The position numbers were made by a program, and so were the translations under genes. Of a stretch of 64,000 nt of DNA, positions 20,287 through 39,658 are shown in pieces (position 1 is the stretch's first letter; every line of letters begins with the position of its first letter). This DNA is from an uncultured Veillonella sp. (GTDB taxonomy: Bacteria > Bacillota > Negativicutes > Veillonellales > Veillonellaceae). The notes below the pieces were generated by a model. That model made no database searches and was not told the origin of the DNA. It was given only the letters and a program-made list of their open reading frames with translations. Where the stretch lies: contig CAURQH010000008.1 in assembly GCA_963526885.1 (NCBI GenBank), positions 21,468-85,467 on the forward strand, in the 5' to 3' direction.

Positions 20287-20332
20287 ACATGTAGAGTCGA
20301 CGAAAGATGTATGATGTCATAAGGAGATACAT

Positions 20333-21013
20333 ATGGGACAATTAATTATTATTGAGGGTGGCGACGGCAGTGGTAAGGCCACGCAGACGGCTAAGTTGTT
20401 GGAACGACTACAAGCAGAAGGATATCCCGTGCGGTCTGTAAGTTTTCCTAATTACGATAGTCCAGCAGCGGAACCCATCAAAATGTACTTACGTGGTGAC
20501 TTTGGGAAAGAAGCGAACTCTGTGAATGCCTATGTGGCTAGCACACTCTATGCGATAGACCGATTTGCATCGTATCGCCAAGATTGGCAAACTTTTTATG
20601 AAGAAGGTGGCATTATCATTGCCGATCGGTATACCACATCTAATATGGTGCATCAAATGATAAAATACACCGATACGAAAGAGCGTCAATCATTTTTACA
20701 GTGGCTTGACCAGTTGGAATACGATTTATATGGCTTGCCAAGACCAGATGCAGTGATCCTATTAGACATGCCTCTGTCTTTGTCCAAGGCTTTGTTAGCA
20801 GAACGCACAGGCAAGACAGGTGGCAATACGGGAGATATTCATGAACAAGATGCCTCTCACTTAACGGCAGTTCATGAGGCTTATGATATGTTGGTGAATA
20901 CCTATGATTGGCACCGTGTGCACTGCGAGAATGAAAGCAATCAGTTGCGTACTATTGATGACATTCATGAGGAAGTCTATGGTATTGTAAAACAATATAT
21001 ATGTAAAGACTAG
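20333..21013 (+). CDS. tmk: Thymidylate kinase
   Basis: IEGGDGSGKAT P-loop, FP, ADRY motifs. Confidence 0.93.
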   Translation: MGQLIIIEGGDGSGKATQTAKLLERLQAEGYPVRSVSFPNYDSPAAEPIKMYLRGDFGKEANSVNAYVASTLYAIDRFASYRQDWQTFYEEGGIIIADRYTTSNMVHQMIKYTDTKERQSFLQWLDQLEYDLYGLPRPDAVILLDMPLSLSKALLAERTGKTGGNTGDIHEQDASHLTAVHEAYDMLVNTYDWHRVHCENESNQLRTIDDIHEEVYGIVKQYICKD

Positions 21014-21115
21014 TCCCTAGCTAATAAAATGTGTCGTACCTATTCACTAGTGTGAATAGTATAGTATCATGGATAGTCTGTTATGGTACGATACACGTTA
21101 AAAAAGGATATGATA

Positions 21116-21171
21116 GAAACACCACATGGAATGCAAATATTTTGCCGAAACCATGTGGTGTTTCTTCTTTT
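21116..21171 (+). terminator. Terminator after tmk
   Basis: GAAACACCACATGG...CCATGTGGTGTTTC then TTCTTTT. Confidence 0.7.
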
Positions 21172-21198
21172 ATTCGTGTATTTATTGCCATAACATGC

Positions 21199-21209
21199 TA
21201 TAATAAAGG
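21199..21209 (+). repeat. Putative attL core
   Basis: TATAATAAAGG identical to 62745-62755; arm-like TCGTCATATAA-ACGTCAAAAAA at 21261-21282. Confidence 0.7.
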
Positions 21210-21224
21210 AAAATCTCATATAAT

Positions 21225-21258
21225 AAAAGAAACCGCATTCTTATGCGGTTCTTTTTTT
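21225..21258. terminator. Bidirectional terminator downstream of the integrase
   Basis: AAAAGAAACCGCAT-TCTT-ATGCGGTTCTTTTTTT. Confidence 0.8.
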
Positions 21259-21290
21259 ATTCGTCATATAAACGTCAAAAAATAATAAAA

Positions 21291-22349
21291 TTAGTCGAAA
21301 ATTTGGCATATTTGAGTGCGAGCATTCTCTCTCATTTCATCCGAGTAGTGGATGTACGTTTTTATAACAGTATTTACTGTATCGCCTAACAAAGACGCAA
21401 CTGTTTTAATGTCTACGCCGTTTGCTAGTAGTTTAGTTGCGTATGTGTGCCTAAAATCATGAGTCGTATGTTTGTTAATGTGGCGTTTTGTATATTCGTG
21501 TACAAGGGTAGGTGAATATATAGGAATAAGCCTATCGGTAGTACAACGTGCTTTATACTCCAACAAAACATCTGACAATGATGGCGGTATAGGGATTGTA
21601 CGATAACTATTTTTCGTTTTTAGTGGTCCGAGTCCGTGCGTTCTATTTTCATTCAAACGTACCCATTGCTTATTAATGGTGATTGTCAGATTGTCGAAAT
21701 TGATGTTATCCCATGTTAAGCCTAATAACTCACCAACACGCATGCCAGTATAATGCAATATTTTTACTGCTATAAAATAGTGTGAGGATGTATCTGCTGA
21801 TTTGAAGTAATCAGATAATTCTTGATCCGATATAATTCTAATTCTTTTTCTTTTTCTTGCGTCTTTTTTTAAATTAATGACAACAGGATTATTCACCATT
21901 AAATTATACCGCTTTATTGCGTGCGTAAACATCGTTTTAAGCATAGAGAATACATAATGCTTAGTGCTTTCCGACAGAGGCATCTCAGAGGCGATTTTAT
22001 GGATTATTTGGGGTGTTATAGATTGCAACTTCATATCATGGATCTGGTGTAGATGTTTTACATTATTATCATATGCCAATAACGTATTGACTCGTAGATT
22101 ATTTTTTACATCATCAAAGTATAGGCGAGCAAATTCGATGAACGTTATATCTGAAAATTCTTGACTATTAATGAACAGCAATTTTTCTTTGATGTCTTTC
22201 ACAATCACATCGCCGTAGTCTTTCGCTTGCCGTTTAGTGGCGAATCCTTGCTTGCTTTTTTGTCGCCATTTGCCGTATCGGTCTTTGTAGCTAACAATAA
22301 CCTGCCAACCTTTATCCTTTTGTCGTGTAGATATAGAATAACTAGCCAT
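21291..22349 (-). CDS. int: Tyrosine integrase
   Basis: Arm-binding N-terminus; TGMRVGE, HDFRHTYAT, LGD...TY catalytic residues. Confidence 0.95.
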   Translation of the reverse strand: MASYSISTRQKDKGWQVIVSYKDRYGKWRQKSKQGFATKRQAKDYGDVIVKDIKEKLLFINSQEFSDITFIEFARLYFDDVKNNLRVNTLLAYDNNVKHLHQIHDMKLQSITPQIIHKIASEMPLSESTKHYVFSMLKTMFTHAIKRYNLMVNNPVVINLKKDARKRKRIRIISDQELSDYFKSADTSSHYFIAVKILHYTGMRVGELLGLTWDNINFDNLTITINKQWVRLNENRTHGLGPLKTKNSYRTIPIPPSLSDVLLEYKARCTTDRLIPIYSPTLVHEYTKRHINKHTTHDFRHTYATKLLANGVDIKTVASLLGDTVNTVIKTYIHYSDEMRENARTQICQIFD

Positions 22350-22480
22350 GATTGCTCCTTTCTATGGTTGTTGCAGAATGTGCAAGTACCATGTATTGGA
22401 AATCTTCCAATAGTTGAATTATAAAACGTATGTTCTTAATTAAATGTAAAAATATGCCCCCTCATTAAGAGGGGGATTTT

Positions 22481-23032
22481 TTATTTACCAAGCTTCCATT
22501 TGTGGCCACATTTTAAACATGTACCGACTCTATCATTTTTACCCATGAATCCAGCTGCTAAACCAATGCCACCAGTTAGCAGACCGCCAACAATTGCTTT
22601 ACCTCCGCTAAACCCCTTTTTGTCGATTTCAATATGTGGTGAATTACATTTAGGGCAACGAGGTATATCGTCCGCAGGTGTTTGCATGCCTTGATATTTA
22701 CGAACCATGTTTTTTAATTCTTCGTTACGTTCCCATTCCATTACTAGAGTAGTTGATTTAGAATTACCAATCCCAGTAATGTCACATAGTTTACCACAAG
22801 AATTCGCACGAGAAAACATACCATCTATTTTAAGTAATTCAATTCTATCGCAAAGTTCAACAACGTTATAAGTAACGCCATTTAGTTCCATAGGGAAATT
22901 AGGAATTGATTCAACAACAGGCGTTACTGGCGTAACAGCTTGTGCTTGACTAGATCCGTTTAAAGATGCACCACAATGCATGCAAAACTTTGCACCGTCT
23001 GGCAATTGGTTACCGCAATTCATACAAAACAT
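22481..23032 (-). CDS. Zinc-ribbon protein with Gly-rich hydrophobic hairpin (lysogeny accessory)
   Basis: N-terminal CxxC..CxxC; C-terminal CPKC...GGLLTGGIGLAAG...CLKC; terminator at about 22455-22482. Confidence 0.75.
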   Translation of the reverse strand: MFCMNCGNQLPDGAKFCMHCGASLNGSSQAQAVTPVTPVVESIPNFPMELNGVTYNVVELCDRIELLKIDGMFSRANSCGKLCDITGIGNSKSTTLVMEWERNEELKNMVRKYQGMQTPADDIPRCPKCNSPHIEIDKKGFSGGKAIVGGLLTGGIGLAAGFMGKNDRVGTCLKCGHKWKLGK

Positions 23033-23043
23033 ATCAATTCCTC

Positions 23044-23691
23044 CTACAAATCTCTACGAACTTCTATTGCTTTACCCATAATCCTAACTGGTAAAGTCGC
23101 TATATCGTGATTGCTATAGAACATTCTAGGGAATGCCCTCACATTATCACCTACAATATCTATACCATCCGAGCGGTGGTATATGCGTTTGATGGTTGCT
23201 TCATTGCCTGCAATAGAAACGGCTGCGATTTCTCCATCTTCAACATCGGGTTGTTGCCTAATCACAACAATATCACTATCAAACAGGGTAGGCTCCATTG
23301 AGTCACCTTTGATACGTAGTGCGAAATATTCACCACGCATGGCTAGTGATTGTGAAATCTCTATACATTCATCGTATTCAGCGACAGCCGTATTTGGAAT
23401 GCCAGCAACGATAGAACCTAATACAGGAATGCGAACACCGCTAGTAAGTGGAATAGCATAATTTATTTCAGATTTTGTATCATTAGGGATTGGCTCCCTG
23501 CCGAGCAGATAATCTGTAGTAACGTTGAATAACTTTGCTATTTGAGCAAGCATTGAAGATGTTGGTACACGCTTATCAGTCTCCCATTGAGATACTGCAT
23601 TTCTAGTGATATTTAATTTTAATCCTAATTCAGAGCCAGTCATATTGTGGCCAAGTCTTAGTTCTTTTATACGTTGACCTATTGTACTCAT
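23044..23691 (-). CDS. CI-like repressor (XRE HTH plus S24 peptidase)
   Basis: HTH with AVSQWE, Ala-Gly site VAGIP, GDSM serine and TIKR lysine. Confidence 0.93.
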   Translation of the reverse strand: MSTIGQRIKELRLGHNMTGSELGLKLNITRNAVSQWETDKRVPTSSMLAQIAKLFNVTTDYLLGREPIPNDTKSEINYAIPLTSGVRIPVLGSIVAGIPNTAVAEYDECIEISQSLAMRGEYFALRIKGDSMEPTLFDSDIVVIRQQPDVEDGEIAAVSIAGNEATIKRIYHRSDGIDIVGDNVRAFPRMFYSNHDIATLPVRIMGKAIEVRRDL

Positions 23692-23716
23692 AACAGTTAC
23701 TCCTTATATTAATATA

Positions 23717-24054
23717 GTAACAAATAGTTTACATTAAAAAAAGTTACAAAATGTTAACAAAAATGCTTGACGTAACATAAAGATTACTTTATAATGTAAT
23801 CATAAGGTAACAAAAAGATTACAAGGAGGTGAACATGACTAAGATTACAGAACTAAGAAAAAAATATAATATCACACAAGAGCAAATTGCCAAGGTGATA
23901 GGAATCTCAAGAGTTAATTACAATATGAAAGAAAATGGAAAGAGGGCGTTTAAACAAAAAGAGATGATGAAAATATACCAATATTTCAATAAAAAAGATA
24001 AACGAATTAACATGCAAGATATTTTTTTAGCTTAGAAGTTAACAAAAAGATTAC
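23717..24054. promoter_or_regulatory. cI/cro switch: 16-bp operators and rightward promoter
   Basis: GTAACAWAAAGWTTAC-like sites at 23717, 23743, 23772, 23807 and 24039; TTGACG(23767)-17-TATAAT(23790). Confidence 0.8.
23835..24035 (+). CDS. Cro-like XRE HTH protein
   Basis: Divergent from cI; TQEQIAKVIGISRVNYNMKENG. Confidence 0.88.
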   Translation: MTKITELRKKYNITQEQIAKVIGISRVNYNMKENGKRAFKQKEMMKIYQYFNKKDKRINMQDIFLA

Positions 24055-24071
24055 AAATAAGGGGCAGAAAC

Positions 24072-24278
24072 ATGAAACTAATCAATTTAACCGAAGAACA
24101 GAACGAACAATTAAAGAAAATGCACATGGATGCAATGAATGATTGCGAAAGATTATCATTGATTGCAAATGAGTTAGATGATGACGGTTTTAAGCGGTTA
24201 GGTTTGGTCGCTTATACAACTGCAAAAGTTTATTTTGATTTAGGAAATTTCGAGAAACACCCAAACTTCTATGAGTAG
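24072..24278 (+). CDS. Phage early hypothetical protein
   Basis: ORF preceded by a variant of the shared RBS motif. Confidence 0.7.
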   Translation: MKLINLTEEQNEQLKKMHMDAMNDCERLSLIANELDDDGFKRLGLVAYTTAKVYFDLGNFEKHPNFYE

Positions 24279-24295
24279 TAATAAGGAGCAGAAAT

Positions 24296-24577
24296 ATGAT
24301 TATGATAAATGAAGACTTCGTAAGAACATTAACAAAAGAACAGCGAGAATATTTAGAAAAACACTATGAAAAACAGTTAGAAGAGGCGATTAAGCATTTT
24401 GAGCGTTATAAGTATGTTCAAAATAATTTAATAGAATTAGTTGGGTTCGAGAAAAAATATTATGCGGCAAATTGGTTTAGATTCTTATCGGGAAGTGAAG
24501 CAAACGATTTAAGTAAAAAAGCTTATGAGTATTCAATAGATGCAACTTTTGAGCTTTTGAGATTTGATAAGGAGTAG
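24296..24577 (+). CDS. Phage early hypothetical protein
   Basis: AAGGAGCAGAAATATG start motif. Confidence 0.7.
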   Translation: MIMINEDFVRTLTKEQREYLEKHYEKQLEEAIKHFERYKYVQNNLIELVGFEKKYYAANWFRFLSGSEANDLSKKAYEYSIDATFELLRFDKE

Positions 24578-24581
24578 AAAT

Positions 24582-24896
24582 ATGAATAAATTAGTAAAGT
24601 TTGAAGAACGGAAAGTAGTAGATGGATTTACATTCCATAAAGGCTGGTGGGGAGAGTTCTCCCCTACAGGTGAATTGGTAACTGTATATGCGTACCCAAG
24701 AGTTGAGGTTAATGAATATGATTGGTCGTACAGTTGGAAATTCGCCAAAATCTTCTATCGGTTTGATGGTGGATTTGTTGGAGATTTGGAACGACTTGAA
24801 AAATTGCCTGATTTGGTTGTAGCGGATTTTTGTGATGTAGCTGAGCAAGAGATGTTAGACCAAAAAGACAAATTTCTTGAGTATTATGGAGAATAA
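24582..24896 (+). CDS. Phage early hypothetical protein
   Basis: AAGGAGTAGAAATATG start motif. Confidence 0.7.
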   Translation: MNKLVKFEERKVVDGFTFHKGWWGEFSPTGELVTVYAYPRVEVNEYDWSYSWKFAKIFYRFDGGFVGDLERLEKLPDLVVADFCDVAEQEMLDQKDKFLEYYGE

Positions 24897-24898
24897 TC

Positions 24899-25210
24899 AT
24901 GGAGAAAAGAACATACACGGCGGAGGAAGTCATGGGAATGCTCCACTGCACCAAAAGTACATTGATGAATTACAAATATAGAGGTGTACTGCTACCAATT
25001 AAAGGTGTAAAGCCTATGGTATACAGTGCCAAGAATGTACAGGCTTTCATTGATGGGGGTGAAGAGTTCACCCCTTGGGAATTTGAAAATTTAAAACGTG
25101 AGAACAATCGACTACGAGAAGAAAACCGCAGATTGAAAGCGAAGTTCTTCAAAGTTCAAAATGTTATCACAGTCGAGGCAGGGGATTTATTAGAACAGCT
25201 TGCCTACTAA
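24899..25210 (+). CDS. MerR-like HTH plus coiled coil (candidate excisionase)
   Basis: YTAEEVMGMLHCTKSTLMNY...G.L winged-HTH pattern. Confidence 0.65.
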   Translation: MEKRTYTAEEVMGMLHCTKSTLMNYKYRGVLLPIKGVKPMVYSAKNVQAFIDGGEEFTPWEFENLKRENNRLREENRRLKAKFFKVQNVITVEAGDLLEQLAY

Positions 25211-25242
25211 CAACAGTATATAGAAATCAAGAGGTGATTGAA

Positions 25243-25509
25243 ATGAACGGAAGTACAAACAAGCCACGGAGCGAGTTTGAAAGTTCGCTAAGGGGCATAA
25301 TTCTAACGCAAGACCAATTCGCAGAACGATTATGTATTAGCAAGAGGGCATTTCTGAAATATCTATATGGTGAGTTATATCCACCATGTGATGTGATAGC
25401 AAAAGCTGTAGAAGAGTTTAACGTACATTCTATGGTGCTATATCACCTAACCAATCAATGCCCTATAGCTAGGGTATATATGAATAAATTAAAGGAGGTT
25501 ATGAAGTGA
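25243..25509 (+). CDS. XRE-like HTH protein
   Basis: LTQDQFAERLCISKRAFLKYLYG. Confidence 0.65.
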   Translation: MNGSTNKPRSEFESSLRGIILTQDQFAERLCISKRAFLKYLYGELYPPCDVIAKAVEEFNVHSMVLYHLTNQCPIARVYMNKLKEVMK

Positions 25510-25799
25510 AAAGACGTAAAAAAAGAACCCATATCCGATGGGATAGGGTTATAGCAGTGGCTATGATTCCAGTAGTGCTAGTAGGTATATATTTTGCAGT
25601 AGCACAAGAACCAATTCAATATGAAGATACAACAGTAATTGTAAAACAAGGCGATACTCTATGGGATATTGCTAAAGACGCCGTAGGGGAAAAGGTAGAT
25701 GTTCGGAATAGTATCCGAGACATTATGACTGAAAACAGTTTAAAGGATGGGAATATTCAACCCGGTATGACGTTGAAAGTAAAGGCGGTGAAACATTGA
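25506..25799 (+). CDS. Membrane-anchored LysM protein (YneA-like)
   Basis: Basic N-terminus, one TM helix, VKQGDTLWDIA...IQPGMTL LysM domain. Confidence 0.8.
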   Translation: MKRRKKRTHIRWDRVIAVAMIPVVLVGIYFAVAQEPIQYEDTTVIVKQGDTLWDIAKDAVGEKVDVRNSIRDIMTENSLKDGNIQPGMTLKVKAVKH

Positions 25800-26005
25800 A
25801 GTACAACAAATTAATTGGATATCGCAATATGTGTGGAATGACTCAAATGGATATGGCCAAAATAATCAATTTAAAATCAGCACAAGCCTATGGAGCGAAA
25901 GAAAATGGTAAAACACATTTTACAGCTGATGAAATGAAAGCAATTAGAAATGAAATAAATAGCCGTTTAAATATGGAATTAACTATTGATGAATTGTTTT
26001 TTTAG
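25796..26005 (+). CDS. Second Cro-like HTH protein
   Basis: MTQMDMAKIINLKSAQAYGAKENG...IDELFF. Confidence 0.8.
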   Translation: MKYNKLIGYRNMCGMTQMDMAKIINLKSAQAYGAKENGKTHFTADEMKAIRNEINSRLNMELTIDELFF

Positions 26006-26041
26006 AGAATCTATAAATTTAAAAAGTAAATGAGGTGAAAC

Positions 26042-26215
26042 ATGAAAGGAAAACATAAATACGTTGCCAATGTGATTGCTTGCGTACCTATGATGATTAA
26101 AGTGCGGGCAGATGATACAGAAGAGGCTTGTAAAAAGATTAGGGCGAAAGTACATAAGAAGTTAGATGTCGAAATCGACAAGATAGCTTTTAGAACATTC
26201 GGAAAATTAGAATAG
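26042..26215 (+). CDS. Small hypothetical protein (57 aa, not in ORF track)
   Basis: GAGGTG RBS; MKGKHKYVANVIACVPMMIKVRADDTEEA... Confidence 0.6.
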   Translation: MKGKHKYVANVIACVPMMIKVRADDTEEACKKIRAKVHKKLDVEIDKIAFRTFGKLE

Positions 26216-26235
26216 CAGTGAAAGGAGGTGAAAAT

Positions 26236-26400
26236 ATGAAAAAATGGTATGCCGTAGAAGGCTATGTCAAGATCCCATTCAATATTGCAGTACGAGGTCG
26301 AAATGATGAAGAAATCCAAGAGAATGCAATCGAGGAATTGACACGCAAATATGATTGTGATGCCGAAAATTGTAAAATCGATTTTGTAACGGAGGAATAA
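26236..26400 (+). CDS. Small hypothetical protein
   Basis: AGGAGGTG RBS; residue pattern resembles the preceding ORF. Confidence 0.65.
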   Translation: MKKWYAVEGYVKIPFNIAVRGRNDEEIQENAIEELTRKYDCDAENCKIDFVTEE

Positions 26401-26456
26401 AAAAAGCCCTCAAAAATGAGGGCTACCGCTCCTAAATAAGGAGCAGAAATATGACT
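26399..26456 (-). ncRNA. Candidate ~58-nt antisense sRNA (anti-RBS)
   Basis: Minus-strand TGTGCTATAAT extended -10 (26463-26473), hairpin GCTCCT/AGGAGC, terminator AGCCCTCA-TTTT-TGAGGGCT plus T-tract. Confidence 0.6.
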
Positions 26457-26503
26457 ACAGTCATTATAGCACATATTAAGTGATTACACTAGGGAGGAAA
26501 TGC

Positions 26504-27016
26504 ATGAAGTTATACGAATTAGCAGAAAATTACAAGGAAGTTGCCACAATGATGGAGCAGGTCGAGATGGGGTCGGAGGATTGGCAAACGATCCAAGACA
26601 CATTGGAGGCCATCGATGGTGAGTTTGATGTAAAGGTGCAGAATATCTGTGCTTTAGTAAAAGAATACAAGTACAACGTGGAAATGGTCAAAGCTGAAAA
26701 GAAACGTCTTGATGAAGTCGCACGAGGTTATGACAATAAGGCTACATGGTTAGAAGCCTACTTGCAAGAACAGTTGCAAAAAACGGGAAACCTCAAAAGT
26801 ACTATGTTATATGGTCCACATAAATTGACATACCGCAAAGGCGTATCTACAGAGGTAACTGATGTAAATGCCTTGCCTATTGAGTTCTTGAAAACAAAGG
26901 TAGAGGCAGATAAAACAGCCATCAAAAAAGCATTACAAGAGGGTATCGAAGTAACTGGTGCAAGACTGGTTGATACTACAAGCCTAAAGGTAACTATTGG
27001 AAAGGATGATAAATAA
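26504..27016 (+). CDS. Siphovirus Gp157 family protein
   Basis: MKLYEL start, coiled coil, DKTAIKKAL..G.EV.GARL C-terminus. Confidence 0.85.
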   Translation: MKLYELAENYKEVATMMEQVEMGSEDWQTIQDTLEAIDGEFDVKVQNICALVKEYKYNVEMVKAEKKRLDEVARGYDNKATWLEAYLQEQLQKTGNLKSTMLYGPHKLTYRKGVSTEVTDVNALPIEFLKTKVEADKTAIKKALQEGIEVTGARLVDTTSLKVTIGKDDK

Positions 27017-27657
27017 TGCAGACAATGAACATCTATCAATCGTTGAATTATATTCAATCGAATTTGAAAGCCCCAAAAGGGCAATTCAATTCATTTGGTA
27101 AATACCATTACCGCAGTTGCGAGGATATTTTGGAGGGGGTCAAACCTCACTTGAAAGAAACCAATACATGCCTTGTGATTAGTGATGATATTGTGACAAT
27201 CGGAGACCATAATTATATCAAGGCAACAGCTACGTTGTATGGTGCTGATGGTGGAGCGGTAGCCAATAGTGCCTTTGCGAAAGAGCCTTTGGACAAAAAG
27301 GGAATGGATCCATCACAAATAACAGGGGCTACATCCTCATATGCAAGAAAATACGCATTGAATGGGTTATTCTGCATAGATGATAACAAAGACGCAGATA
27401 CAGATGAATACGTTGCTAAAACAACGCAAACAAAATCTAAAACTCAAGCACATAAAACAAATAGCGTGAAGGAAAAGGAAGCTAAGCAAGGGTATTTACA
27501 GAAGATTACTCAACAGATGGGTATTAAGCAAATCAACCCTAAATTAATATCAGAACACATTAACAAGACTTTCAACAAGAAAACATCCAATGAGTTAACC
27601 GAAGATGAATTGAAAGCCTTATATGATTGGGTAGTTGCTTATGAAGTGGCAAGTTGA
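27016..27657 (+). CDS. ERF-family ssDNA annealing protein
   Basis: KAPKGQFNSFGKYHYRSCEDI, GATSSYARKYAL.GLF.IDD. Confidence 0.92.
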   Translation: MQTMNIYQSLNYIQSNLKAPKGQFNSFGKYHYRSCEDILEGVKPHLKETNTCLVISDDIVTIGDHNYIKATATLYGADGGAVANSAFAKEPLDKKGMDPSQITGATSSYARKYALNGLFCIDDNKDADTDEYVAKTTQTKSKTQAHKTNSVKEKEAKQGYLQKITQQMGIKQINPKLISEHINKTFNKKTSNELTEDELKALYDWVVAYEVAS

Positions 27658-28186
27658 TTGCTTGCAGATTGTCAAAACTCCAGTGGGTGCCATGTTGATG
27701 GTACCCGCAGGGGTTGAGGTATTAAACCACATACAGCAGGACAAGAAATATAACATAGAACTCAAGCTATATCGTGAAAAACGGTCATTGACGGCTAATA
27801 GCTATTGTTGGGTGTTATGCCAAAAGATAGCTGATGAGCTTTCAAAGGATGGGATATATACAAGTCGTGAAGATGTATATAAACAAGCTATTAAGGATTC
27901 CCAAACTTTTACACCATTACCAATTAAAGATGAAGATTTAGAACGATTTATTAAAGCGTGGAGGTCAAAGGGTATTGGTTGGGTAATAGAAGATATGGGG
28001 CCTAGTAGAAAACATAAAGGATATAGAATTGTTCATGTTTATATGGGTAGTAGTACCTACGATACCAAAGAGATGGCAAGGCTTATTGATTGTTTAGTAT
28101 CTGAGGCTACTCAATTAGGAATAGAAACAAAGACACAAGAGGAAGTGAACAGCCTATTAGAAGATTGGGAGGCGATGGATGAATAA
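27641..28186 (+). CDS. NinB/Orf-like recombination protein
   Basis: KRSLTANSYCW...IA; GSSTYDTKEMARLID motifs. Confidence 0.7.
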   Translation: MKWQVDCLQIVKTPVGAMLMVPAGVEVLNHIQQDKKYNIELKLYREKRSLTANSYCWVLCQKIADELSKDGIYTSREDVYKQAIKDSQTFTPLPIKDEDLERFIKAWRSKGIGWVIEDMGPSRKHKGYRIVHVYMGSSTYDTKEMARLIDCLVSEATQLGIETKTQEEVNSLLEDWEAMDE

Positions 28187-28427
28187 GAGCAAAGCGGATG
28201 ACGAACGATTATATAAAAGAACGAGGAAATGGGCGATAGAACGAGATGAGGGGCTATGCGTATTATGTAAAGCACCTGCTACGGAAGTACATCATATCTT
28301 GTTTAGATCTAGAGGTGGTGATAGTAGATTATCTAATCTAGCATGCCTATGTAGAGAATGCCACAACATGGCACATGGTAGTTATCATGAGGAAGTATAC
28401 GAAACATTAAAGGAGCGAATCAAATGA
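28179..28427 (+). CDS. HNH endonuclease
   Basis: RD..LCVLC...EVHHI...GG...NLACLCRECH. Confidence 0.9.
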   Translation: MNKSKADDERLYKRTRKWAIERDEGLCVLCKAPATEVHHILFRSRGGDSRLSNLACLCRECHNMAHGSYHEEVYETLKERIK

Positions 28428-28648
28428 AAAGAGACCAATTAATTAAATTCATGATTGCACAACGGATTAAAATGTATGAATCAATACAAGCATATGGATA
28501 TGAATATAGAGTCAAAGAATTACAAGAAGTAATTGATATTATCGATGGATTAGCACGATTAGAAGAAGATGATATGCAAGCAATCTCATTGGATCAATTC
28601 ATGGAAATGTTGCTGAAAAGCAAAGATAACGAAGATACAGAAGAATAA
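28424..28648 (+). CDS. Phage hypothetical protein
   Basis: ATGA overlap, AAGGAG RBS. Confidence 0.65.
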   Translation: MKRDQLIKFMIAQRIKMYESIQAYGYEYRVKELQEVIDIIDGLARLEEDDMQAISLDQFMEMLLKSKDNEDTEE

Positions 28649-28661
28649 ACAGGGTACCTTT

Positions 28662-29396
28662 ATGAATTATATGGCGGAACTTAATGCATTTGATGATTGG
28701 GTCGATGAAAACGAGAGTTTATCACCTACAGCACGTTTGCTTTACATTCAATTATTGCAAAGGTGTAACAAGGCTAGATGGATTCAACCTTTTACAGTAT
28801 CTTTATCACGCCTTGCATTCAAGACAGGCTTATCAATTTCAGGTGTTCAAAAAGCGAGAAATCAGTTGAAACAATATGGGTTGATTGATTGGAAATCAAG
28901 AAGTGGCCAACAATCTGCTGAGTATACAATTACATCACTTGTTGTTACTGAGTACCAACAAACGTATCAACAAGTGGAACAACAACAGTATCAACAAGTG
29001 GAACAACAACAGTATCAACAAGTGTATCACATAGAAAGACATAAGACTAAAGACATAAATACTACTTCTAACGAAGTAGTATATGTGAAACAACCAAAAG
29101 ACAAACCAAAAGTAGAAAAGAAGAAAGCAACGAGGAAAGTATTTGTCAAACCTACTCCGTTGGAAATTCAAACCTACGTTGATGAACATCAATTGAATGT
29201 AGATGTAGAACGATTCTTTGATTACTACGAGGGCAATGGTTGGAAAGTCGGAAAGAATCCGATGAAAGATTGGAAAGCGACTGCGAGGAACTGGAGCAGG
29301 AACAGCTTTGACAAAGGAGGTGGATCTAATCAACGTGCAAGCTTTAATAGAACGGCTGAACCTAAGCAAGATGAATATGCCGACCTCTATCTATGA
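28662..29396 (+). CDS. Phage replication initiator (winged-helix N-terminus, DnaD-like C-terminus)
   Basis: ARNQLKQYGLI wHTH; FFDYY..NGW...MKDWKA..RNW; internal iterons; followed by a helicase loader. Confidence 0.82.
   Translation: MNYMAELNAFDDWVDENESLSPTARLLYIQLLQRCNKARWIQPFTVSLSRLAFKTGLSISGVQKARNQLKQYGLIDWKSRSGQQSAEYTITSLVVTEYQQTYQQVEQQQYQQVEQQQYQQVYHIERHKTKDINTTSNEVVYVKQPKDKPKVEKKKATRKVFVKPTPLEIQTYVDEHQLNVDVERFFDYYEGNGWKVGKNPMKDWKATARNWSRNSFDKGGGSNQRASFNRTAEPKQDEYADLYL
28952..29024 (+). repeat. Iterons of the phage replication origin
   Basis: GTATCAACAAGTGGAACAACAACA at 28964 and 28988, partial copy at 29012. Confidence 0.75.
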
Positions 29397-30213
29397 TGAG
29401 TTAGAACTCAGAACTTATCTACATGGTGACAAGGTGGAGTTAGTAGAGGGCGCAAAGGATAGACCTCTATTCGATATAAGGGCAAACCAGTACATCGAAA
29501 GCAAGCGAATGTGTAGTAAATGCACTGGTGGTGAGGGTTGTCGAACCAAAGGCATAATGACACGCATGCATGAAGATGGCGAATTATATGTGCTGAAATG
29601 TGGTTTATATGGGGCGTGGCGGAATCAAAAGGATTTAGAGAAAGTGACCTTGCGAGCAAACATTCCTAGAGCCTATGTAGAAACCACCCTAGAAAACTAC
29701 GAAAAACGTACCGTAGAGGGCGAGAAAGCACATGCCTATATGATTACACTAGCCAATGATGAAAGCACGCAAGGAGCGTACATATTCGGCGCTAGTGGAT
29801 TAGGCAAAACACATCTTGCTATTGGATTACTTAGGAAGAAGATGGAGCAAGGCAAAACAGGTGTATTTGTGGTAGTACCCGAACTAATGGAAAGCCTGCG
29901 GAGATGTCTCCGAGATAATGGTGATGATTTTGAGATACTCCAAGCACTGTACAATGTTGATTGCTTAGTACTGGATGATCTAGGGGCAGAGAAAGCGACG
30001 GAATGGGTAGCAGAACGGTTGTACCTTGTAATCAACCAACGATATTTGAGTAATCGAATGACAATCATAACTAGCAATTGTACTTTGCAAGAAGTAAAGG
30101 AACGGCTAGGGGAACAAGGCAAACGAATTACATCAAGGGTGTTGGAGATGTGCAAAATCATCCAGCTAAAAGGCGAAGATTACAGACGATTAAAAGCGAA
30201 AGGAGAACGGTAA
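29371..30213 (+). CDS. DnaC/IstB-like helicase loader ATPase
   Basis: GASGLGKT, LVLDDLGAE, ITSN, RITSR; start approximate. Confidence 0.9.
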   Translation: MNMPTSIYDELELRTYLHGDKVELVEGAKDRPLFDIRANQYIESKRMCSKCTGGEGCRTKGIMTRMHEDGELYVLKCGLYGAWRNQKDLEKVTLRANIPRAYVETTLENYEKRTVEGEKAHAYMITLANDESTQGAYIFGASGLGKTHLAIGLLRKKMEQGKTGVFVVVPELMESLRRCLRDNGDDFEILQALYNVDCLVLDDLGAEKATEWVAERLYLVINQRYLSNRMTIITSNCTLQEVKERLGEQGKRITSRVLEMCKIIQLKGEDYRRLKAKGER

Positions 30214-30698
30214 TGAGTGATAATGTAAAGAATCCATCATATTACAACCGAGGAAAGATTGAAGTATGGGAATTTATCGAAGACCAAGGATTAGATTACC
30301 ATACAGGAAATGCGGTCAAGTATATTGCGAGAGCGGGGTTTAAAGACCCAATGAAAGAGGTCGAGGATTTGCAAAAGGCGGTGGCATTTTTGGAACGGAA
30401 GATTAGGCTTTTAAGTGGGACAACCATTGAATCTGAAACAGGGATGGGAGCCGAAGAATTTATACAATCACTCACATGGGAGCAAAAAGAGTATTTAGAT
30501 AGACAATATAAATTCAGAGAAGAGATGTTGGTACATTTCATTGATAAACACAACAAACATAAAACAGAAAAAACAAAACAAGATTGCTTAAATTGGTTTT
30601 ATTGTTTATTGGATTGCATCAATTTATTAAGAGACCCACGATTAATCGAAAAAGCACGTTATTTAAAACAAGAAATGAAAGACGCTGGAGTCTTTTAA
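30213..30698 (+). CDS. DUF3310 (SaV-like) protein
   Basis: VKNPSYY...IE...GNAVKYIARAG.K...EDLQKA. Confidence 0.82.
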   Translation: MSDNVKNPSYYNRGKIEVWEFIEDQGLDYHTGNAVKYIARAGFKDPMKEVEDLQKAVAFLERKIRLLSGTTIESETGMGAEEFIQSLTWEQKEYLDRQYKFREEMLVHFIDKHNKHKTEKTKQDCLNWFYCLLDCINLLRDPRLIEKARYLKQEMKDAGVF

Positions 30699-30716
30699 AA
30701 CAAAAGGAGCAGAAAT

Positions 30717-31046
30717 ATGAAGAAGAAAACATGCGTAGATTGTGGCAAAAAGTTCTTGCCTAAGTATGACCATATCGAGCGGTGCCATGAATGCGAAATG
30801 ATCCATCGCAAACAGGATTTGACGATTGGACAAGTGCTTATCTTGGAAAGTATGGAACGGAAGATTGAAGAAGAACGAGTACGGATAGGTTATTACCCAT
30901 TCACCCATACATGTGTATGGTGTGGCAGAAAGTTCGGTAATAATACTCGCAATTCGGTAGTTTGTAGTGAGAGATGCAGGAGAAAGAACAGATATGCAAA
31001 AGCGGTGGCACGTAAACAAGCACAGAGCATGCAGGCTCATGTATAA
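30717..31046 (+). CDS. Cys-rich zinc-finger hypothetical protein
   Basis: Several CxxC pairs; AAGGAGCAGAAATATG start motif. Confidence 0.7.
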   Translation: MKKKTCVDCGKKFLPKYDHIERCHECEMIHRKQDLTIGQVLILESMERKIEEERVRIGYYPFTHTCVWCGRKFGNNTRNSVVCSERCRRKNRYAKAVARKQAQSMQAHV

Positions 31047-31078
31047 GACATTCGATAGCAAGTACTGGAGGCGAATCA

Positions 31079-31858
31079 GTGAACACAGAACGTAAAATCA
31101 AGACAGAATTATATTGCGATAACTTTCAAAATTACAAACGGTATGGGATCCCAAAGGCACAATTAGTGATTGCAGATATTCCCTACAATTTAGGTAATAA
31201 TGCGTATGCGAGTAATCCGATGTGGTACAACGGTGGAGATAACAAGAATGGCGAAAGCAAATTAGCAGGTAAGGCATTCTTCAATACAGACCACAATTTC
31301 AATATTGCCGAGTACTTCCATTTCTGTAATCGGTTATTGAAGAAAGAGCCAAAAGAAAAGAAGAAAGCACCATGCATGATTATATTTTGTAGCTTTCAAC
31401 AGATGCCGATGATTATTGAATATGCCAAAAAACATGGATTTAAAAACTACATTCCGTTATTCTTCATCAAAAATTATTCATCGCAAGTATTAAAGGCTAA
31501 CATGCGACCAGTAGGGGCGACAGAATATGCATTGATACTCTACCGTGACAAATTGCCGAAGTTTAATAACAACAAGAAAATGCAGTTTGATTGGATGGAG
31601 TGGAAACGAGATAACAAGAAAGATGTGCCAAAAGTACACCCTACTCAAAAGCCTACAAATGTAATTAAGCGATTGATTGAGTTATTTACGGACGAGGGCG
31701 ATGTGGTGATAGATCCAGTCGCAGGGAGTGGTGTTACACTCCGATGTGCTAGAGAATTAGGACGTAGCAGTTATGGTTTTGAAGTATCGAAAGAATTTTA
31801 TAACAAGGCAGTAAATGAGATGTTAGCCGTTAATGAGTGGCAAGAACCGTTATTTTAA
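31079..31858 (+). CDS. Orphan beta-class N4-C/N6-A DNA methyltransferase
   Basis: Motif IV ADIPY precedes HPTQKP and motif I DPVAGSG. Confidence 0.9.
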   Translation: MNTERKIKTELYCDNFQNYKRYGIPKAQLVIADIPYNLGNNAYASNPMWYNGGDNKNGESKLAGKAFFNTDHNFNIAEYFHFCNRLLKKEPKEKKKAPCMIIFCSFQQMPMIIEYAKKHGFKNYIPLFFIKNYSSQVLKANMRPVGATEYALILYRDKLPKFNNNKKMQFDWMEWKRDNKKDVPKVHPTQKPTNVIKRLIELFTDEGDVVIDPVAGSGVTLRCARELGRSSYGFEVSKEFYNKAVNEMLAVNEWQEPLF

Positions 31859-31869
31859 GGAGTAGAAAT

Positions 31870-32307
31870 ATGAGAAATGACATAGTACAAGAGCATGACA
31901 GAATCATTGGCGAATGTGTTACAGAATTAAATGATATGTTAGACAATGTCTACAAATACATTCCTAAGACGATTTTTGAATTAGATATAGAAGAAGCAAA
32001 AGAGCAAGCCAAAGAAAATGATGAGGAAGAAAGACCGCCAATAGTATATTCGGATTTAGTGGAAGAATCTATAACAGCAAATTTACAGTTAGCAAGCCAA
32101 ATCATCTTTTATATTCAAAGTACACAATATGCTTGGGGTCACAAGAAAACAGTGAGACGGCTAATGCTAGTTGAAAGTTTATTGACATGTTGCATTAATC
32201 AGTTGGATCATAATGTGGATATTGAACCGTGTTCAAGAGTGTTTATAATGCAGTTGAAGTATATCCGTGAGATGGTAAGACATCATATTAATAATTTATG
32301 GGGGTGA
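31870..32307 (+). CDS. Phage hypothetical protein
   Basis: AAGGAGTAGAAATATG start motif. Confidence 0.7.
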   Translation: MRNDIVQEHDRIIGECVTELNDMLDNVYKYIPKTIFELDIEEAKEQAKENDEEERPPIVYSDLVEESITANLQLASQIIFYIQSTQYAWGHKKTVRRLMLVESLLTCCINQLDHNVDIEPCSRVFIMQLKYIREMVRHHINNLWG

Positions 32308-32311
32308 TAAT

Positions 32312-32494
32312 GTGAATGTAACATCCACCATGATATTAAAATTGACAGGATTACATAAAAAATTATTGTTTGATTGCACAGGAAGATGGGCAGGATATTT
32401 AAGAAGTAAATGGACTAAAAAACGAATTGTCGGAATAGATAAGGCGGTTGATTTGGTTGTGATGGGATTAATTAGAAAGAATAAAGGAAAGTGA
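32312..32494 (+). CDS. Phage hypothetical protein
   Basis: GGGGTG RBS, GTG start. Confidence 0.5.
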   Translation: MNVTSTMILKLTGLHKKLLFDCTGRWAGYLRSKWTKKRIVGIDKAVDLVVMGLIRKNKGK

Positions 32495-32498
32495 TGAA

Positions 32499-32675
32499 AT
32501 GGACGGAATAGAACCGCTTAATTATTATAATGGCGATAAAGCACTATATTTAGCAAAAACAATCCATAGAATTTATGACTATGTAGATTTTTTCAAAGAG
32601 CCAAAAGCAAGGCGTGTTGGTGTTGTTAAGGCGTATAAATTAATGGTTAGAGGGTTTCAAATAAAGATCAGTTAA
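32499..32675 (+). CDS. Small hypothetical protein (58 aa, not in ORF track)
   Basis: Fills the operon gap; MDGIEPLNYY... Confidence 0.5.
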   Translation: MDGIEPLNYYNGDKALYLAKTIHRIYDYVDFFKEPKARRVGVVKAYKLMVRGFQIKIS

Positions 32676-32691
32676 ACAAGAAGGAGGGAAA

Positions 32692-33063
32692 ATGCGGATT
32701 AATAAATCAGAATTAAAAGAATTAAGCAGAAGTGCATTATATGTATCAAAGAGAACATTTGAAGTAGCGGTAAAGAGTAGCAGTTTTGAAATGAATAACA
32801 AAGGAAAAGCATATGCAGTATATAAGATTTGTGCAGAAATTTATGATGCATTTCCAGTAAATACATGTGAAATAGATTATTACACTATAATAAAATATTA
32901 TTCTTTGCGACAAATATTAAGCAGTATGTGTAATGATAAGGAGCAATACCATGTAGCAGTGTTGAATGCTTGCAAATATTCGGATGAAATGTGGGTTGCA
33001 TTTGATAAAATGAAATACATTTTAGATAATTTTGAAACGGAACTATTTGAGGAGTGGGAGTAA
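32692..33063 (+). CDS. Phage hypothetical protein
   Basis: AGGAGG RBS. Confidence 0.7.
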   Translation: MRINKSELKELSRSALYVSKRTFEVAVKSSSFEMNNKGKAYAVYKICAEIYDAFPVNTCEIDYYTIIKYYSLRQILSSMCNDKEQYHVAVLNACKYSDEMWVAFDKMKYILDNFETELFEEWE

Positions 33064-33065
33064 CT

Positions 33066-33491
33066 ATGAAAATAAAAATTAAAAAAACACATCCAAACGG
33101 AAAGATTCCAACATATGCAACAGATGGATCTGGTGCATTCGATTTCTACAGTGCCGAAGATGTATTTATTTCAGAAACGGAAGTGCGTGCTATCAATTTA
33201 GGTGTAGCAATGGAGATACCACAAGGGCATGTAATGTTGTTATTCCCACGTTCTAGCATTGGAAAGAAGACATGGCTAAGAATGGCAAATAGTGTAGGGG
33301 TCATAGATAGTGACTACCGAGGTACAATTCATGCGTTATATGAAAATGTACTTGGTGGCGATACTATTTTAATTGGACAAAGAATAGCACAAGGGATTAT
33401 CGTACCTGTTCCGAAAGTGGAATTTGAAGAGGTAGAAGAGTTATCACCTACTGAACGTGGCGAGGGTGGATTTGGTAGTACAGGGGTTTAG
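33066..33491 (+). CDS. dut: Trimeric dUTPase
   Basis: GAFDF, PRSS, GVIDSDYRG, RIAQG, RGEGGFGSTG. Confidence 0.95.
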   Translation: MKIKIKKTHPNGKIPTYATDGSGAFDFYSAEDVFISETEVRAINLGVAMEIPQGHVMLLFPRSSIGKKTWLRMANSVGVIDSDYRGTIHALYENVLGGDTILIGQRIAQGIIVPVPKVEFEEVEELSPTERGEGGFGSTGV

Positions 33492-33493
33492 AT

Positions 33494-33715
33494 ATGACAG
33501 AATATGAAGTAGAAGAACTGAAAGCAGAAGTTTTAGATTTAATTATGACGATGGAATATTGGCCATGTAATAACGATGAAAAGTTTTGGGATATACAATG
33601 TAAGACGTGGCCACTGCTTAAACAGTTGAAGCCTGTGCTCAATGAGGATGAGTATGAAAAGTTATATGAAATGTACGAGCAGGCGATTATATGGGGGTTT
33701 ATAGGTGAAACGTAG
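33494..33715 (+). CDS. Phage hypothetical protein
   Basis: Operonic ORF. Confidence 0.6.
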   Translation: MTEYEVEELKAEVLDLIMTMEYWPCNNDEKFWDIQCKTWPLLKQLKPVLNEDEYEKLYEMYEQAIIWGFIGET

Positions 33716-33871
33716 ATATTTAAACACATTCGCAGAATATGCCATAGGTGGTGCATGTACTAATTGTGATAGAGAAGATTTCAAGAAATATGATCTAAGA
33801 ACGGCACTGATACACGTAGGGATGCCAGTATATGATGAGTGTTCAGAGTGTTACCCGTATAAGGTGCAGAC

Positions 33872-34252
33872 ATGAAGAATGCACTACGGATAGATTGCGA
33901 TTTCGTATATCTGAACGATTATATAGACAGTGAACGTACCAACAGAATAATTGCCTCTAGCATTAAGAAGAAATTAACGAATATAGTCATAAAACAGTGT
34001 TTATATGCGAATTGTAATAAGCCAAAACACAAGGTAGATATGACGTTTCGATGGCATGTAAAGGGTAGGCATGACAGTGACAACATAGCCTTTGCAAAGA
34101 AATATGTGCTTGATGGTATGGTTAAAGCAGGCGTACTAGAAAATGACAATCCGAAATGTGTTAGGCATTTAAAAGATTATATCTATCGTGATGTAAAGAA
34201 ACCAAATTTAGATTATGTTGAAGTATCATGGGAGGAAATAGACGATGAATAG
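33872..34252 (+). CDS. RusA-like Holliday junction resolvase
   Basis: HDSDNI.FAKK.VLDGMV.AGVL.ND motif. Confidence 0.82.
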   Translation: MKNALRIDCDFVYLNDYIDSERTNRIIASSIKKKLTNIVIKQCLYANCNKPKHKVDMTFRWHVKGRHDSDNIAFAKKYVLDGMVKAGVLENDNPKCVRHLKDYIYRDVKKPNLDYVEVSWEEIDDE

Positions 34253-34634
34253 TGTTCAATTAATGGGTCATTTGGCAAAAGATGTAGAGTTAAGATATAC
34301 GGCAAGTGGTAGACAGGTAGCAACATTCACAGTGGCCGCCACAAATACATACAAAGAACAGAATGGCGAGGCCAAAGAGTTTACAGCATTTGTAAATTGC
34401 GTAGCATGGGGACAGCAAGCAGAGTATTTTAGCCAATTCCAAAAGGGCGATAGGGTATTTGTTCAAGGAAGATTACAAACACGTTCTTATGAGGCACAGG
34501 ACGGTACTAAACGATATGTTACTGAGGTAGTTGCGGATTTCTGTACAGGCTATGCAAAAGCACCACAGACACAGGGGCAAGGCAATTTTGATATGATGGC
34601 CAATACTAAACCACGAGAGGAATTACCATTTTAA
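34245..34634 (+). CDS. ssb: Single-stranded DNA-binding protein
   Basis: MNSVQLMGHL..DVELRYT, GRLQTRSY, C-terminal ELPF. Confidence 0.95.
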   Translation: MNSVQLMGHLAKDVELRYTASGRQVATFTVAATNTYKEQNGEAKEFTAFVNCVAWGQQAEYFSQFQKGDRVFVQGRLQTRSYEAQDGTKRYVTEVVADFCTGYAKAPQTQGQGNFDMMANTKPREELPF

Positions 34635-34715
34635 TAATTAGTGATGTAGTAAAACAAAACCACCCTATCTGATGATGGGGTGGTATTCGTGCGTGTTATG
34701 GTAAAGGAGCAGTAC

Positions 34716-35189
34716 ATGGAATTAAGCAAAAAAGAACAACGAGAGTGGGCAAAGGCAGAATTAGGGAAATTATGGGAGATACGAGAGGAAGGCAAATGGG
34801 CGAGTTATCAGATTAAAAAATTAGAACGAGAGATGGGACCGAAAGAACTAAATGGATCTAGCCTAAGCGGAGAGGGTGGTGGAGGATTCCAAGTACCGAC
34901 AATAGAACAACTAAATAAATTACAGGAATTATACGACCAATTAGAAGAGTATAAACAACGGTCGATAGAATTAGAGTTGCAGACATTACGAATTATTGAT
35001 AAAATTGATGACGGTATATTAAGAGTGATATTGAAACGTGTATACATTAGCGGGCAACGATTGAGACATATGTATAAAAGCATAACGAAATCGTATGATA
35101 CTGTTAAGCAGTGGCATTCTGAGGCGTTGGTTCAATTTTATGTAAAATCTCATGAAATTTCCCCCGCAAATACACCTAAATACACCTAA
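34716..35189 (+). CDS. Putative late transcription regulator (RinA/ArpU/DUF1492-like)
   Basis: Last early gene; coiled coil plus sigma-region-4-like C-terminus (ILKRVYI.G...YDTVKQWHSEAL). Confidence 0.7.
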   Translation: MELSKKEQREWAKAELGKLWEIREEGKWASYQIKKLEREMGPKELNGSSLSGEGGGGFQVPTIEQLNKLQELYDQLEEYKQRSIELELQTLRIIDKIDDGILRVILKRVYISGQRLRHMYKSITKSYDTVKQWHSEALVQFYVKSHEISPANTPKYT

Positions 35190-35217
35190 ATACACCTAAA
35201 TACACCTAAATACACCT
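35168..35217 (+). repeat. Five perfect tandem copies of AAATACACCT
   Basis: Read directly; abuts TGATATAAT extended -10 at 35226-35234. Confidence 0.95.
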
Positions 35218-35298
35218 ATTGACTGTGATATAATATATAATGTGATAAGTGGGAACAGTTGGAACTCATTTTACACTTCCTCTAATAACATACAAAAG

Positions 35299-35340
35299 CA
35301 AAAGTAGCATTATCCATTAGCTGGGATAGTGCTATTTTTG
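35299..35340. terminator. Intrinsic terminator shortly after the putative late promoter
   Basis: AAAAGTAGCATTATCC...GGATAGTGCTATTTTT. Confidence 0.75.
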
Positions 35341-35361
35341 TACCTTTTTTCTTTATTTATC

Positions 35362-35390
35362 TTTACATTTTAATCATAAAGTGTTATAAT
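35362..35390 (+). promoter_or_regulatory. Moron promoter
   Basis: TTTACA-17-TATAAT with TG extension. Confidence 0.78.
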
Positions 35391-35415
35391 ATAAGTATAG
35401 AAAGGAGGTGAAGAT

Positions 35416-35571
35416 GTGAAAGAGTTTTATGATTCATTGTTTGAAATAGTTTCATTCCTTGCTAATATGATTGCAGTACTAACTGGAGCATATCAAGGGT
35501 ATAAGAAATTAAAGCAAATTTTGAAAAATAAAAAACCCTCTAAAAGGAATAAACGCCACAAACGCAAATAA
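35416..35571 (+). CDS. 51-aa hydrophobic/basic peptide (type I toxin-like; not in ORF track)
   Basis: AGGAGGTG RBS; MKEFYDSLFEIVSFLANMIAVLTGAYQGYKKLKQILKNKKPSKRNKRHKRK. Confidence 0.65.
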   Translation: MKEFYDSLFEIVSFLANMIAVLTGAYQGYKKLKQILKNKKPSKRNKRHKRK

Positions 35572-35637
35572 CCTATAGAGGGTATACAGAGGGGGAGCAA
35601 TCCCCCAATGTATCTCAATTGTATCACGTCAAACAGT

Positions 35638-35790
35638 ATGAAAACAAGAACGAAAAAATTATTATTGTTGGCATTGGCTATTGTTTCATTTGTATCTAAT
35701 CTTTATTCGGGGATGAATTGGAGTTCATGGATTAATGGTGCGTTCATTGGTTACCTTTATAAAATGTGGTTAGGTGATAAGAATGCCTAG
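35638..35790 (+). CDS. Small membrane protein
   Basis: MKTRTKKLLLLALAIVSFVS...; two hydrophobic segments; weak RBS. Confidence 0.5.
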   Translation: MKTRTKKLLLLALAIVSFVSNLYSGMNWSSWINGAFIGYLYKMWLGDKNA

Positions 35791-35980: not shown

Positions 35981-36038
35981 CGTACAAGGACGCTTATAAA
36001 TGGGCGTCCTTTTGTATTGCATGAAAGGTGGTGAGGGT

Positions 36039-37428: not shown

Positions 37429-37437
37429 GGAGAATAT

Positions 37438-38136: not shown

Positions 38137-38141
38137 AAAAT

Positions 38142-39657: not shown

Positions 39658-39658
39658 T

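Follow-up and report, generated by a model that had tools for sequence, protein, structure and literature searches.

A temperate prophage within a 64,000-nt stretch of DNA from an uncultured Veillonella sp. (NCBI GenBank: GCA_963526885.1, contig CAURQH010000008.1, positions 21,468 to 85,467; hereafter, the window) carries a 17-nt motif, spanning Shine–Dalgarno (SD) sequence, spacer, and start codon, at the beginning of five dispersed early genes. A sixth copy is read in reverse inside a compact promoter–terminator unit. Judged from its sequence, the feature is best read as a variant of phage antisense control, in which a multi-target RNA directed against ribosome-binding sites is coupled with a junction for gene shuffling. 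We assign a probability of roughly 0.6 to the proposal that this single antisense RNA represses a plug-in set of genes in trans. A preliminary description of the window had put forward such a trans-acting, regulon-silencing RNA. Comparison of the seed, the terminator, and their co-occurrence with the motif favors that proposal, while gene shuffling turned out to coexist with RNA control and the wobble-pairing argument proved weaker.

All six motif copies of the preliminary description were located (24059, 24283, 24569, 26438, 30704, and 31857), including the variant with two mismatches ahead of the gene at 24072. These six sites at three or fewer mismatches compare with 0.79 ± 0.88 expected by chance, and none of 100 shuffled sequences reached six. 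Five copies head open reading frames (ORFs) of 68, 93, 104, 109, and 145 codons, and the sixth, at 26438, heads only 10 codons (26451..26483, plus strand), as had been noted. Three of the targets are consecutive genes right behind cro, and two lie downstream of the replication genes. Across the 55 contigs of the genome (1.77 Mb, 39.6% GC), five exact copies occur, every one inside the prophage; at two mismatches there are nine, six in the prophage and three in the host. Two other identities for the motif were rejected. It does not reflect a spacer preference of the host, because only five of the 83 AAGGAG-N7-ATG sites in the genome carry the two motif spacers and just one other spacer was seen twice. 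Nor is it a DNA operator, being non-palindromic, confined to one strand, and fixed to the ATG.

The reverse unit can be read directly from the sequence. Its extended −10 element, TGTG(C/G)TATAAT, is present at 26463..26473 on the minus strand, as the preliminary description placed it, with no clear −35; a promoter scan requiring a −35 did not return it among the 60 sites listed of 66. The predicted RNA of about 58 nt (26398..26456, minus strand), with its start placed 7 nt after the −10, comprises a 10-nt toehold, hairpin 1 (26428..26444), a terminator, and a U tail. The 20-nt seed (26435..26454), which is the sixth motif copy on the minus strand, extends into the 5′ arm of hairpin 1; this arm is invariant and holds the anti-SD sequence, and the 3′ arm is variable. 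The intrinsic terminator earlier assigned to 26425–26399 was found as a stem at 26405..26424 followed by a U tract, and a terminator scan gave 10 matches versus 8.0 expected, which taken alone is no enrichment. The 59-nt RNA is computed to fold with −27 kcal/mol (z = −6.5), and 0 of 200 shuffles were equally stable. The hairpin and terminator anatomy thus agrees with the folded RNA proposed earlier, but hairpin 1 is longer by two pairs than first described, and the free 5′ toehold is therefore 10 nt. The 5-nt loop of hairpin 1 is unpaired and complementary to AAUA preceding several targets. By its position, the predicted RNA is perfectly antisense to the early mRNA just 5′ of the recombination genes. 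One small-share RNA run yielded a single 190-nt contig at 25927–26113, outside the reverse unit, which is evidence neither for nor against its transcription.

The comparative evidence comes from related phages. A DNA search of 101 genomes gave eight further strong loci in seven genomes, all of the same genus; scans of viral and metagenome contigs added more, and removal of duplicates left 10 phage loci, the window included. In their alignment, the seed is invariant in 20 of 20 columns (one haplotype), the −10 in 10 of 11, and the terminator in 15 of 20, while the bases around the seed drift: the stretch from the −10 to the seed retains one invariant column of nine (seven haplotypes), and the 3′ arm with the linker three of 10 (six haplotypes). 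A structure alignment has 97% of its cells paired and shows compensatory changes at two terminator pairs; the covariation score was reached by 2 of 500 shuffles, a frequency that for related sequences is not a probability. The plus-strand mini-ORF behind the sixth copy ranges from 3 to 13 codons in the phages and is 2 or 16 codons long in the host copies described below, with differing frames, and a functional leader peptide was rejected on these grounds. Of 121 genomes in the family, the eight matched by the RNA model are also the eight with the motif, all in one genus. A motif array without the reverse unit, the pattern that the preliminary description had set against its proposal, was not seen in the genomes searched, several of which are incomplete. 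One locus (L063) fits the scan pattern but was excluded as a plain gene start that lacks the unit. With an invariant seed, a covarying terminator, an unconserved mini-ORF, co-occurrence, and a conserved host core, a putative antisense RNA gains real support from comparison.

To characterize the targets, we collected 59 candidate starts and dropped nine (four mismatches, TTG starts, and one doubtful site), which left 50 sites in the 10 loci, at two to eight motif-headed genes per locus with some loci partial. RNA–target duplexes are computed to be perfect over 17–23 bp. For the five targets in the window, net binding after opening of the hairpin is −13 to −20 kcal/mol, and they rank 1, 2, 3, 4, and 6 among the 2243 SD-led starts of the genome, with target motif 2 (24283..24299) in first place. 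The earlier call for a genome-wide scan is thereby answered in part, the ranking being partly circular; host starts among the 25 listed reach −12.5 kcal/mol at most. Target motif 1 (24059..24075; duplex −26.1 kcal/mol) has one wobble change and one mismatch at 24071, which is indeed the only mismatch in this window. Motifs 3 (24569..24585) and 5 (31857..31873) each carry a C-to-T wobble change, and motif 4 lies at 30704..30720; all five are on the plus strand. The 16-nt core is exact in 17 of the 50 target sites versus 10 of 10 unit copies. Among 48 changes in targets, 21 C>T and 16 A>G, together 37, keep G–U pairing, and G>A never occurs, whereas T>C at −1 (eight), A>T (two), and G>T (one) break pairing; the wobble signal is consequently real but mixed. 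Counted by distinct junction, C>T is found in 11 and T>C in seven.

Shuffling of genes at the motif, which the preliminary description treated as a mere alternative to an RNA, is directly visible and compatible with one. A given upstream end can be followed, past the motif, by different genes, and a given gene can stand behind different upstream ends; in all, 17 upstream and 15 downstream contexts form 27 combinations. Behind the methylase gene, for example, two unrelated genes alternate, with four loci each. These junctions show the motif to be a crossover point for gene swapping, which the Erf recombinase of the neighboring module plausibly drives. The target proteins fall into many BLAST groups. 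In each phage, the array behind cro (24072–24577 and its relatives) contains one to four divergent paralogs of a small protein with two helices, whose order varies, a picture suggestive of an arms race. No gene is inserted at the sixth, gene-less copy in any of the 10 loci. Separately, one related locus (L199) has, about 1870–1850 bases upstream of the unit, part of an additional motif copy together with a short duplicated stretch before a target start, which look like a recombination scar at the motif.

We also asked how widespread the reverse unit is. Of 168 Gp157 loci scanned, 101 non-redundant ones were kept after short and duplicate loci had been set aside. A reverse extended −10 and terminator lies within 1.5 kb upstream of Gp157 in 33 of the 101, whereas none of them has such a unit in sense orientation and none has one downstream, which argues that the reverse transcription unit is a selected feature. 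Pairing of at least 13 nt with the phage's own gene starts was found for the seven clade loci of this set (three to eight starts each) and for none of the 26 other units. A search for targets that covary with different seeds gave no instance: the seed never changes within the clade, and none of the 26 outside units had a match. The chassis of the unit is thus common and selected, and within this sample only the clade has a seed that matches multiple targets. Many Firmicutes phages carry unannotated reverse promoter–terminator units of 36–123 nt before the recombination module (e.g., L103–L113, L115–L117, L123, L212, and L282:9715–9775), several with loops of the GUUG or GUUCC type. By eye, Listeria phage A118 has a similar stretch at the same place. 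Listeria rliG was considered as the same element and rejected, as it is a different locus; rliG and lasRNA are expressed in lysogens (PMC7397523).

The core of the unit also occurs in host chromosomes. A 49-bp insert, spanning the start of the extended −10 to just past hairpin 1 and without the terminator, lies between tatA and a heavy-metal-associated (HMA) gene in four genomes (G009, G011, G014, and G021) and two metagenome contigs (L064 and L066), with 26 bp of the tatA end duplicated at its flanks. Alleles of the tatA–HMA site were found in 25 genomes, with 4 of 22 filled and 18 of 22 empty. The insert differs at 0–3 of its 49 bases, and neighboring four-fold sites of the same genomes differ by 22–35%; the insert is apparently under selection, to judge by this comparison, though a very short transfer tract could be another cause of the low divergence. 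In a tree built on 2.1 kb of flank (a shorter tatA + HMA tree gave no resolution), the filled alleles are not one clade (approximately unbiased test, p = 1e-11), a distribution that suggests either repeated loss by way of the repeats or transfer. The 26-bp repeat as a phage attachment core had 0 matches in viral contigs. Within the insert, the motif faces away from the genes. The host leader is computed to bind the phage target at −19 to −23 kcal/mol. In the same calculations, the SD of the host gene is unpaired with a probability of 0.19–0.64 (depending on the folding window) with the insert versus 0.68 in empty alleles, and about 0.68 when phage target is bound; by computation, then, the leader can occlude the gene's own SD. 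The host copy may serve defense, as a plain new promoter, or as a phage-sensing switch. It does not exclude lysogeny, because G021 carries both the insert and a prophage.

Taken together, we infer the following course of events. The prophage would make the ~58-nt RNA from a repressor-independent extended −10 promoter opposing the early operon. Its free 5′ end would nucleate on the spacer and AUG of any motif-bearing mRNA start, after which hairpin 1 would be opened by strand displacement to give a 17–23 bp duplex across the SD and start codon that blocks ribosome loading. In the lysogen, the RNA would mop up leaky early transcript; upon induction, the strong rightward promoter would out-titrate it, setting a threshold. 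Small genes swapped at the motif would each arrive already under RNA control, because the control motif is also the crossover point, and the result would be a plug-in regulon.

Among the precedents named in the preliminary description (sar, OOP, and C4), P22 sar is a prophage antisense RNA acting in cis on a single locus, and C4 of P1 and P7 (Rfam RF01695), whose targets lie in one operon, is indeed close; C4 and the start-associated sequences (SAS) of mycobacteriophages are closer than sar or OOP. C4 folds into three stem-loops, arises when RNase P cleaves a longer transcript, and uses its a′ and b′ loops for pairing, whereas the Veillonella phage unit has its own reverse promoter and terminator, a 5′ toehold with a hairpin arm, a single hairpin plus terminator, and two to eight separate gene starts spread over 8–10 kb. 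Pairing over ribosome-binding sites, as in C4, is here a computed result. C4 is a small phage RNA that pairs with mRNA, occludes ribosome sites, and supports lysogeny and immunity, and host chromosomes carry C4-derived RNAs for which an anti-phage use has been proposed (PMC5320573). An Rfam scan of positions 20000–40000 gave no match at the gathering score, with chance-level overlap only (anti-hemB, 20 bits vs 49.5). STnc6030 of Salmonella prophage BTP1 is an antisense RNA on the phage's own mRNA that blocks superinfection, and lambda OOP is a prophage antisense RNA that acts in cis on its own mRNA at a single locus (PMC7067206). STnc6030 is 786 nt long and a cis antisense to late genes at a single locus, in contrast to an early-region RNA of about 58 nt with several targets. 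PeSL cassettes of T4-type phages are short repeated regulatory sequences where small genes are shuffled (PMC2839356). Gene exchange at a repeat is common to both systems, but PeSL places a promoter and terminator at each junction (PMC2839356), whereas the Veillonella phages have unstructured ribosome sites of 17–21 nt and one reverse unit. We found no published description of this RNA or of a multi-target phage RNA against ribosome-binding sites in the literature covered, with most subscription papers, including the original C4 and P4 CI work, outside the search.

SAS in cluster K mycobacteriophages is an asymmetric motif over the SD and beyond, at the starts of unrelated non-structural genes, and an RNA or protein partner has been proposed for it (PMC3203893, PMC11373665, PMC12699233). 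The Veillonella motif is likewise repeated, asymmetric, and located at the starts of unrelated non-structural genes. It differs from the 13-bp cluster K consensus, sharing only AGGAG, and belongs to another host; a candidate partner gene is evident for it, whereas no partner RNA is described in the accessible portions of the cited SAS papers. Inverted repeats of the extended-SAS type were absent from the 25 longest of 553 inverted repeats in the window, which is not a search aimed at them. In Mycobacterium phage Adephagia (L283:30590–30730, between genes 92 and 93), 17 SAS copies were found, and the only one in reverse orientation occupies a loop, that of a strong rightward hairpin (z = −6.2). 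The surrounding non-coding stretch is retained in 169 of 193 matching phage records, some of which annotate a hypothetical ORF over it. A promoter-like TTG(A/G)C..TAGACT pair precedes the hairpin, and the loop is anti-SAS or anti-SD-like in six of seven aligned phages, with Keshu differing. By its sequence, the hairpin RNA is a candidate partner of SAS, a hint that SAS might act as the Veillonella motif is proposed to do.

Several points weigh against repression in trans by one RNA. Transcription and repression are predicted from sequence alone, and all 10 phages belong to a single clade of one host genus, so that counts across them are not independent. None of the 26 units outside the clade pairs over 13 nt or more with its own starts, so reverse units in general do not serve to pair with multiple targets. 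The T>C change at −1, an A–C mismatch in the toehold as at 24071, is found at 8 of 50 sites (seven distinct junctions) and is more frequent per site than the pairing-neutral A>G in the spacer (nine over five A positions). The absence of G>A depends on one informative G, and the constraint on the invariant C may also come from the first pair of hairpin 1. The earlier argument that target variants keep G–U pairing thus holds for the bulk of the changes and is weaker than stated. Finally, recombination alone explains motif sharing among the targets, several of the post-cro genes being paralogs. Recombination leaves unexplained that conservation is highest in the gene-less copy, and this point bears on the most serious alternative, which we consider possible though unlikely: the motif would be only a recombination junction and a strong ribosome site, spread as genes were shuffled and duplicated. 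The reverse unit would be the generic antisense unit of Firmicutes prophages, acting in cis on early mRNA ahead of the recombination genes, and it would match other starts just because it overlaps a copy of the motif. The crossovers, the paralogs in the array, the adjoining Erf gene, the tolerated mismatch variant, and the 26 of 33 reverse units without a multi-start match all speak for this explanation. However, a gene-less junction should drift or acquire variants, and instead it is the least variable copy while adjacent bases drift; it has received no gene in any locus, and host copies retain the seed far from any early operon.

Two further explanations carry little weight. An RNA that pairs with the targets mainly to another end than silencing lysogen leak is improbable; during infection it might exclude related phages, act as a post-early shut-off timer, or lower the recombination and replication genes through cleavage or polarity. 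The perfect duplexes and the full overlap in cis would permit this, STnc6030 gives superinfection exclusion (PMC7067206), and host capture fits an anti-phage use, but the coexistence of host copy and prophage in G021 speaks against exclusion of lysogeny by the host copy. Similarly improbable is that the motif binds a phage or host RNA-binding protein controlling translation; the sixth copy would then be one more binding site, on the early mRNA, and the reverse promoter would have no connection with it. An asymmetric motif on one strand at a fixed distance from the ATG would suit a protein, and a protein partner has been left open for SAS (PMC3203893, PMC11373665). This would leave unexplained why the sixth copy sits 7–9 nt behind a conserved reverse −10, in a hairpin and ahead of a terminator, and why the motif in the host insert faces away from genes.

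If repression in trans by the antisense RNA holds, one short RNA controls a changing set of unrelated genes, where known phage antisense RNAs act on one locus, and its control site is the gene-swap sequence, so regulation comes with acquisition. The proposal offers a testable answer to the purpose of repeated start-associated motifs in phages and singles out a specific RNA candidate in cluster K mycobacteriophages. It would also bring to light a class of unannotated reverse transcription units that is widespread among Firmicutes prophages, and would show a host in which a 49-bp core of phage regulatory sequence has been retained, apparently by selection. A broader and rather doubtful extension joins these threads: the motif might act at once as ribosome site, recombination junction, and RNA seed target in a self-extending regulon, the host seed as a domesticated RNA defense against this group of phages or as a natural toehold switch, and the same logic might apply to SAS. 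As a switch, phage mRNA would free the ribosome site of the host gene behind the insert.

The prophage comprises an integrase gene (21291–22349), cI (23044–23691, minus strand), cro (23829–24035, plus strand), a rightward early operon, and late genes to about 62 kb. The rightward early promoter ahead of cro (TTGACG-17-TATAAT, 23767..23795, plus strand; 11 of 12 consensus matches) is the presumed source of the target mRNA. By eye, boxes of the GTAAC..TTAC type are repeated around it (23720–23825), with another at 24038–24056 just before target motif 1; they are probable cI/Cro operators. The early operon encodes Gp157, Erf, a NinB-like protein, and replication and methylase genes, with the recombination module (Gp157, Erf annealing protein, and NinB/Orf-like mediator; 26504..28186, plus strand) directly 3′ of the reverse unit. 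No attachment (att) repeats of at least 12 nt were found between the two prophage ends tested, also by BLAST, and none of 93 annotated phage records covered 80%, leaving no close relative among them.

The five target genes, all on the plus strand, are diverse. Gene 1 (24072..24278, 68 amino acids) encodes a two-helix hairpin of the diverged paralog family of the post-cro array, without a family match, as is also the case for gene 2 (24296..24577, 93 amino acids). Gene 3 (24582..24896, 104 amino acids; a β-sheet and a long helix) closes the variable array in nine loci. Its model had no match at Z ≥ 5 among 48161 chains and none at E 0.001 among viral models, which is not evidence of a new fold. 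Gene 4 (30717..31046, 109 amino acids) is cysteine-rich and weakly matches the HNH-labeled phrog_1271 (E = 2e-8), with no Pfam match. Gene 5 (31870..32307, 145 amino acids) has no family match, and an unrelated 69-amino-acid gene stands behind the same junction in four relatives. The supposition that these early genes are probably toxic found no support, and no defense role emerged, in searches of Pfam (0 of 5), PADLOC (0 of 5), and PHROG (1 of 5, weak) or in the fold search with the one model; PADLOC gave one weak match among five relatives' targets, and Atlas matches were below 0.9 for both target proteins searched.

Other parts of the window hold minor features. Genes for QueC, PTPS/QueD, a radical SAM protein, and GTP cyclohydrolase I at 36667–39657, ahead of the terminase, make up a 7-deazaguanine pathway, probably for DNA modification; the 253-amino-acid gene preceding them has no Pfam match. 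At 35360–35640, a strong promoter and a hydrophobic 51-amino-acid ORF with a basic tail (35416–35571; no Pfam match) are overlapped at the 3′ end of the ORF by a convergent reverse promoter–terminator unit, an arrangement kept in the loci of three relatives that has, by sequence, the layout of a type I toxin–antitoxin pair. A perfect 10-bp tandem repeat of five units lies nearby at 35168–35218, at the end of a late-activator-like gene.

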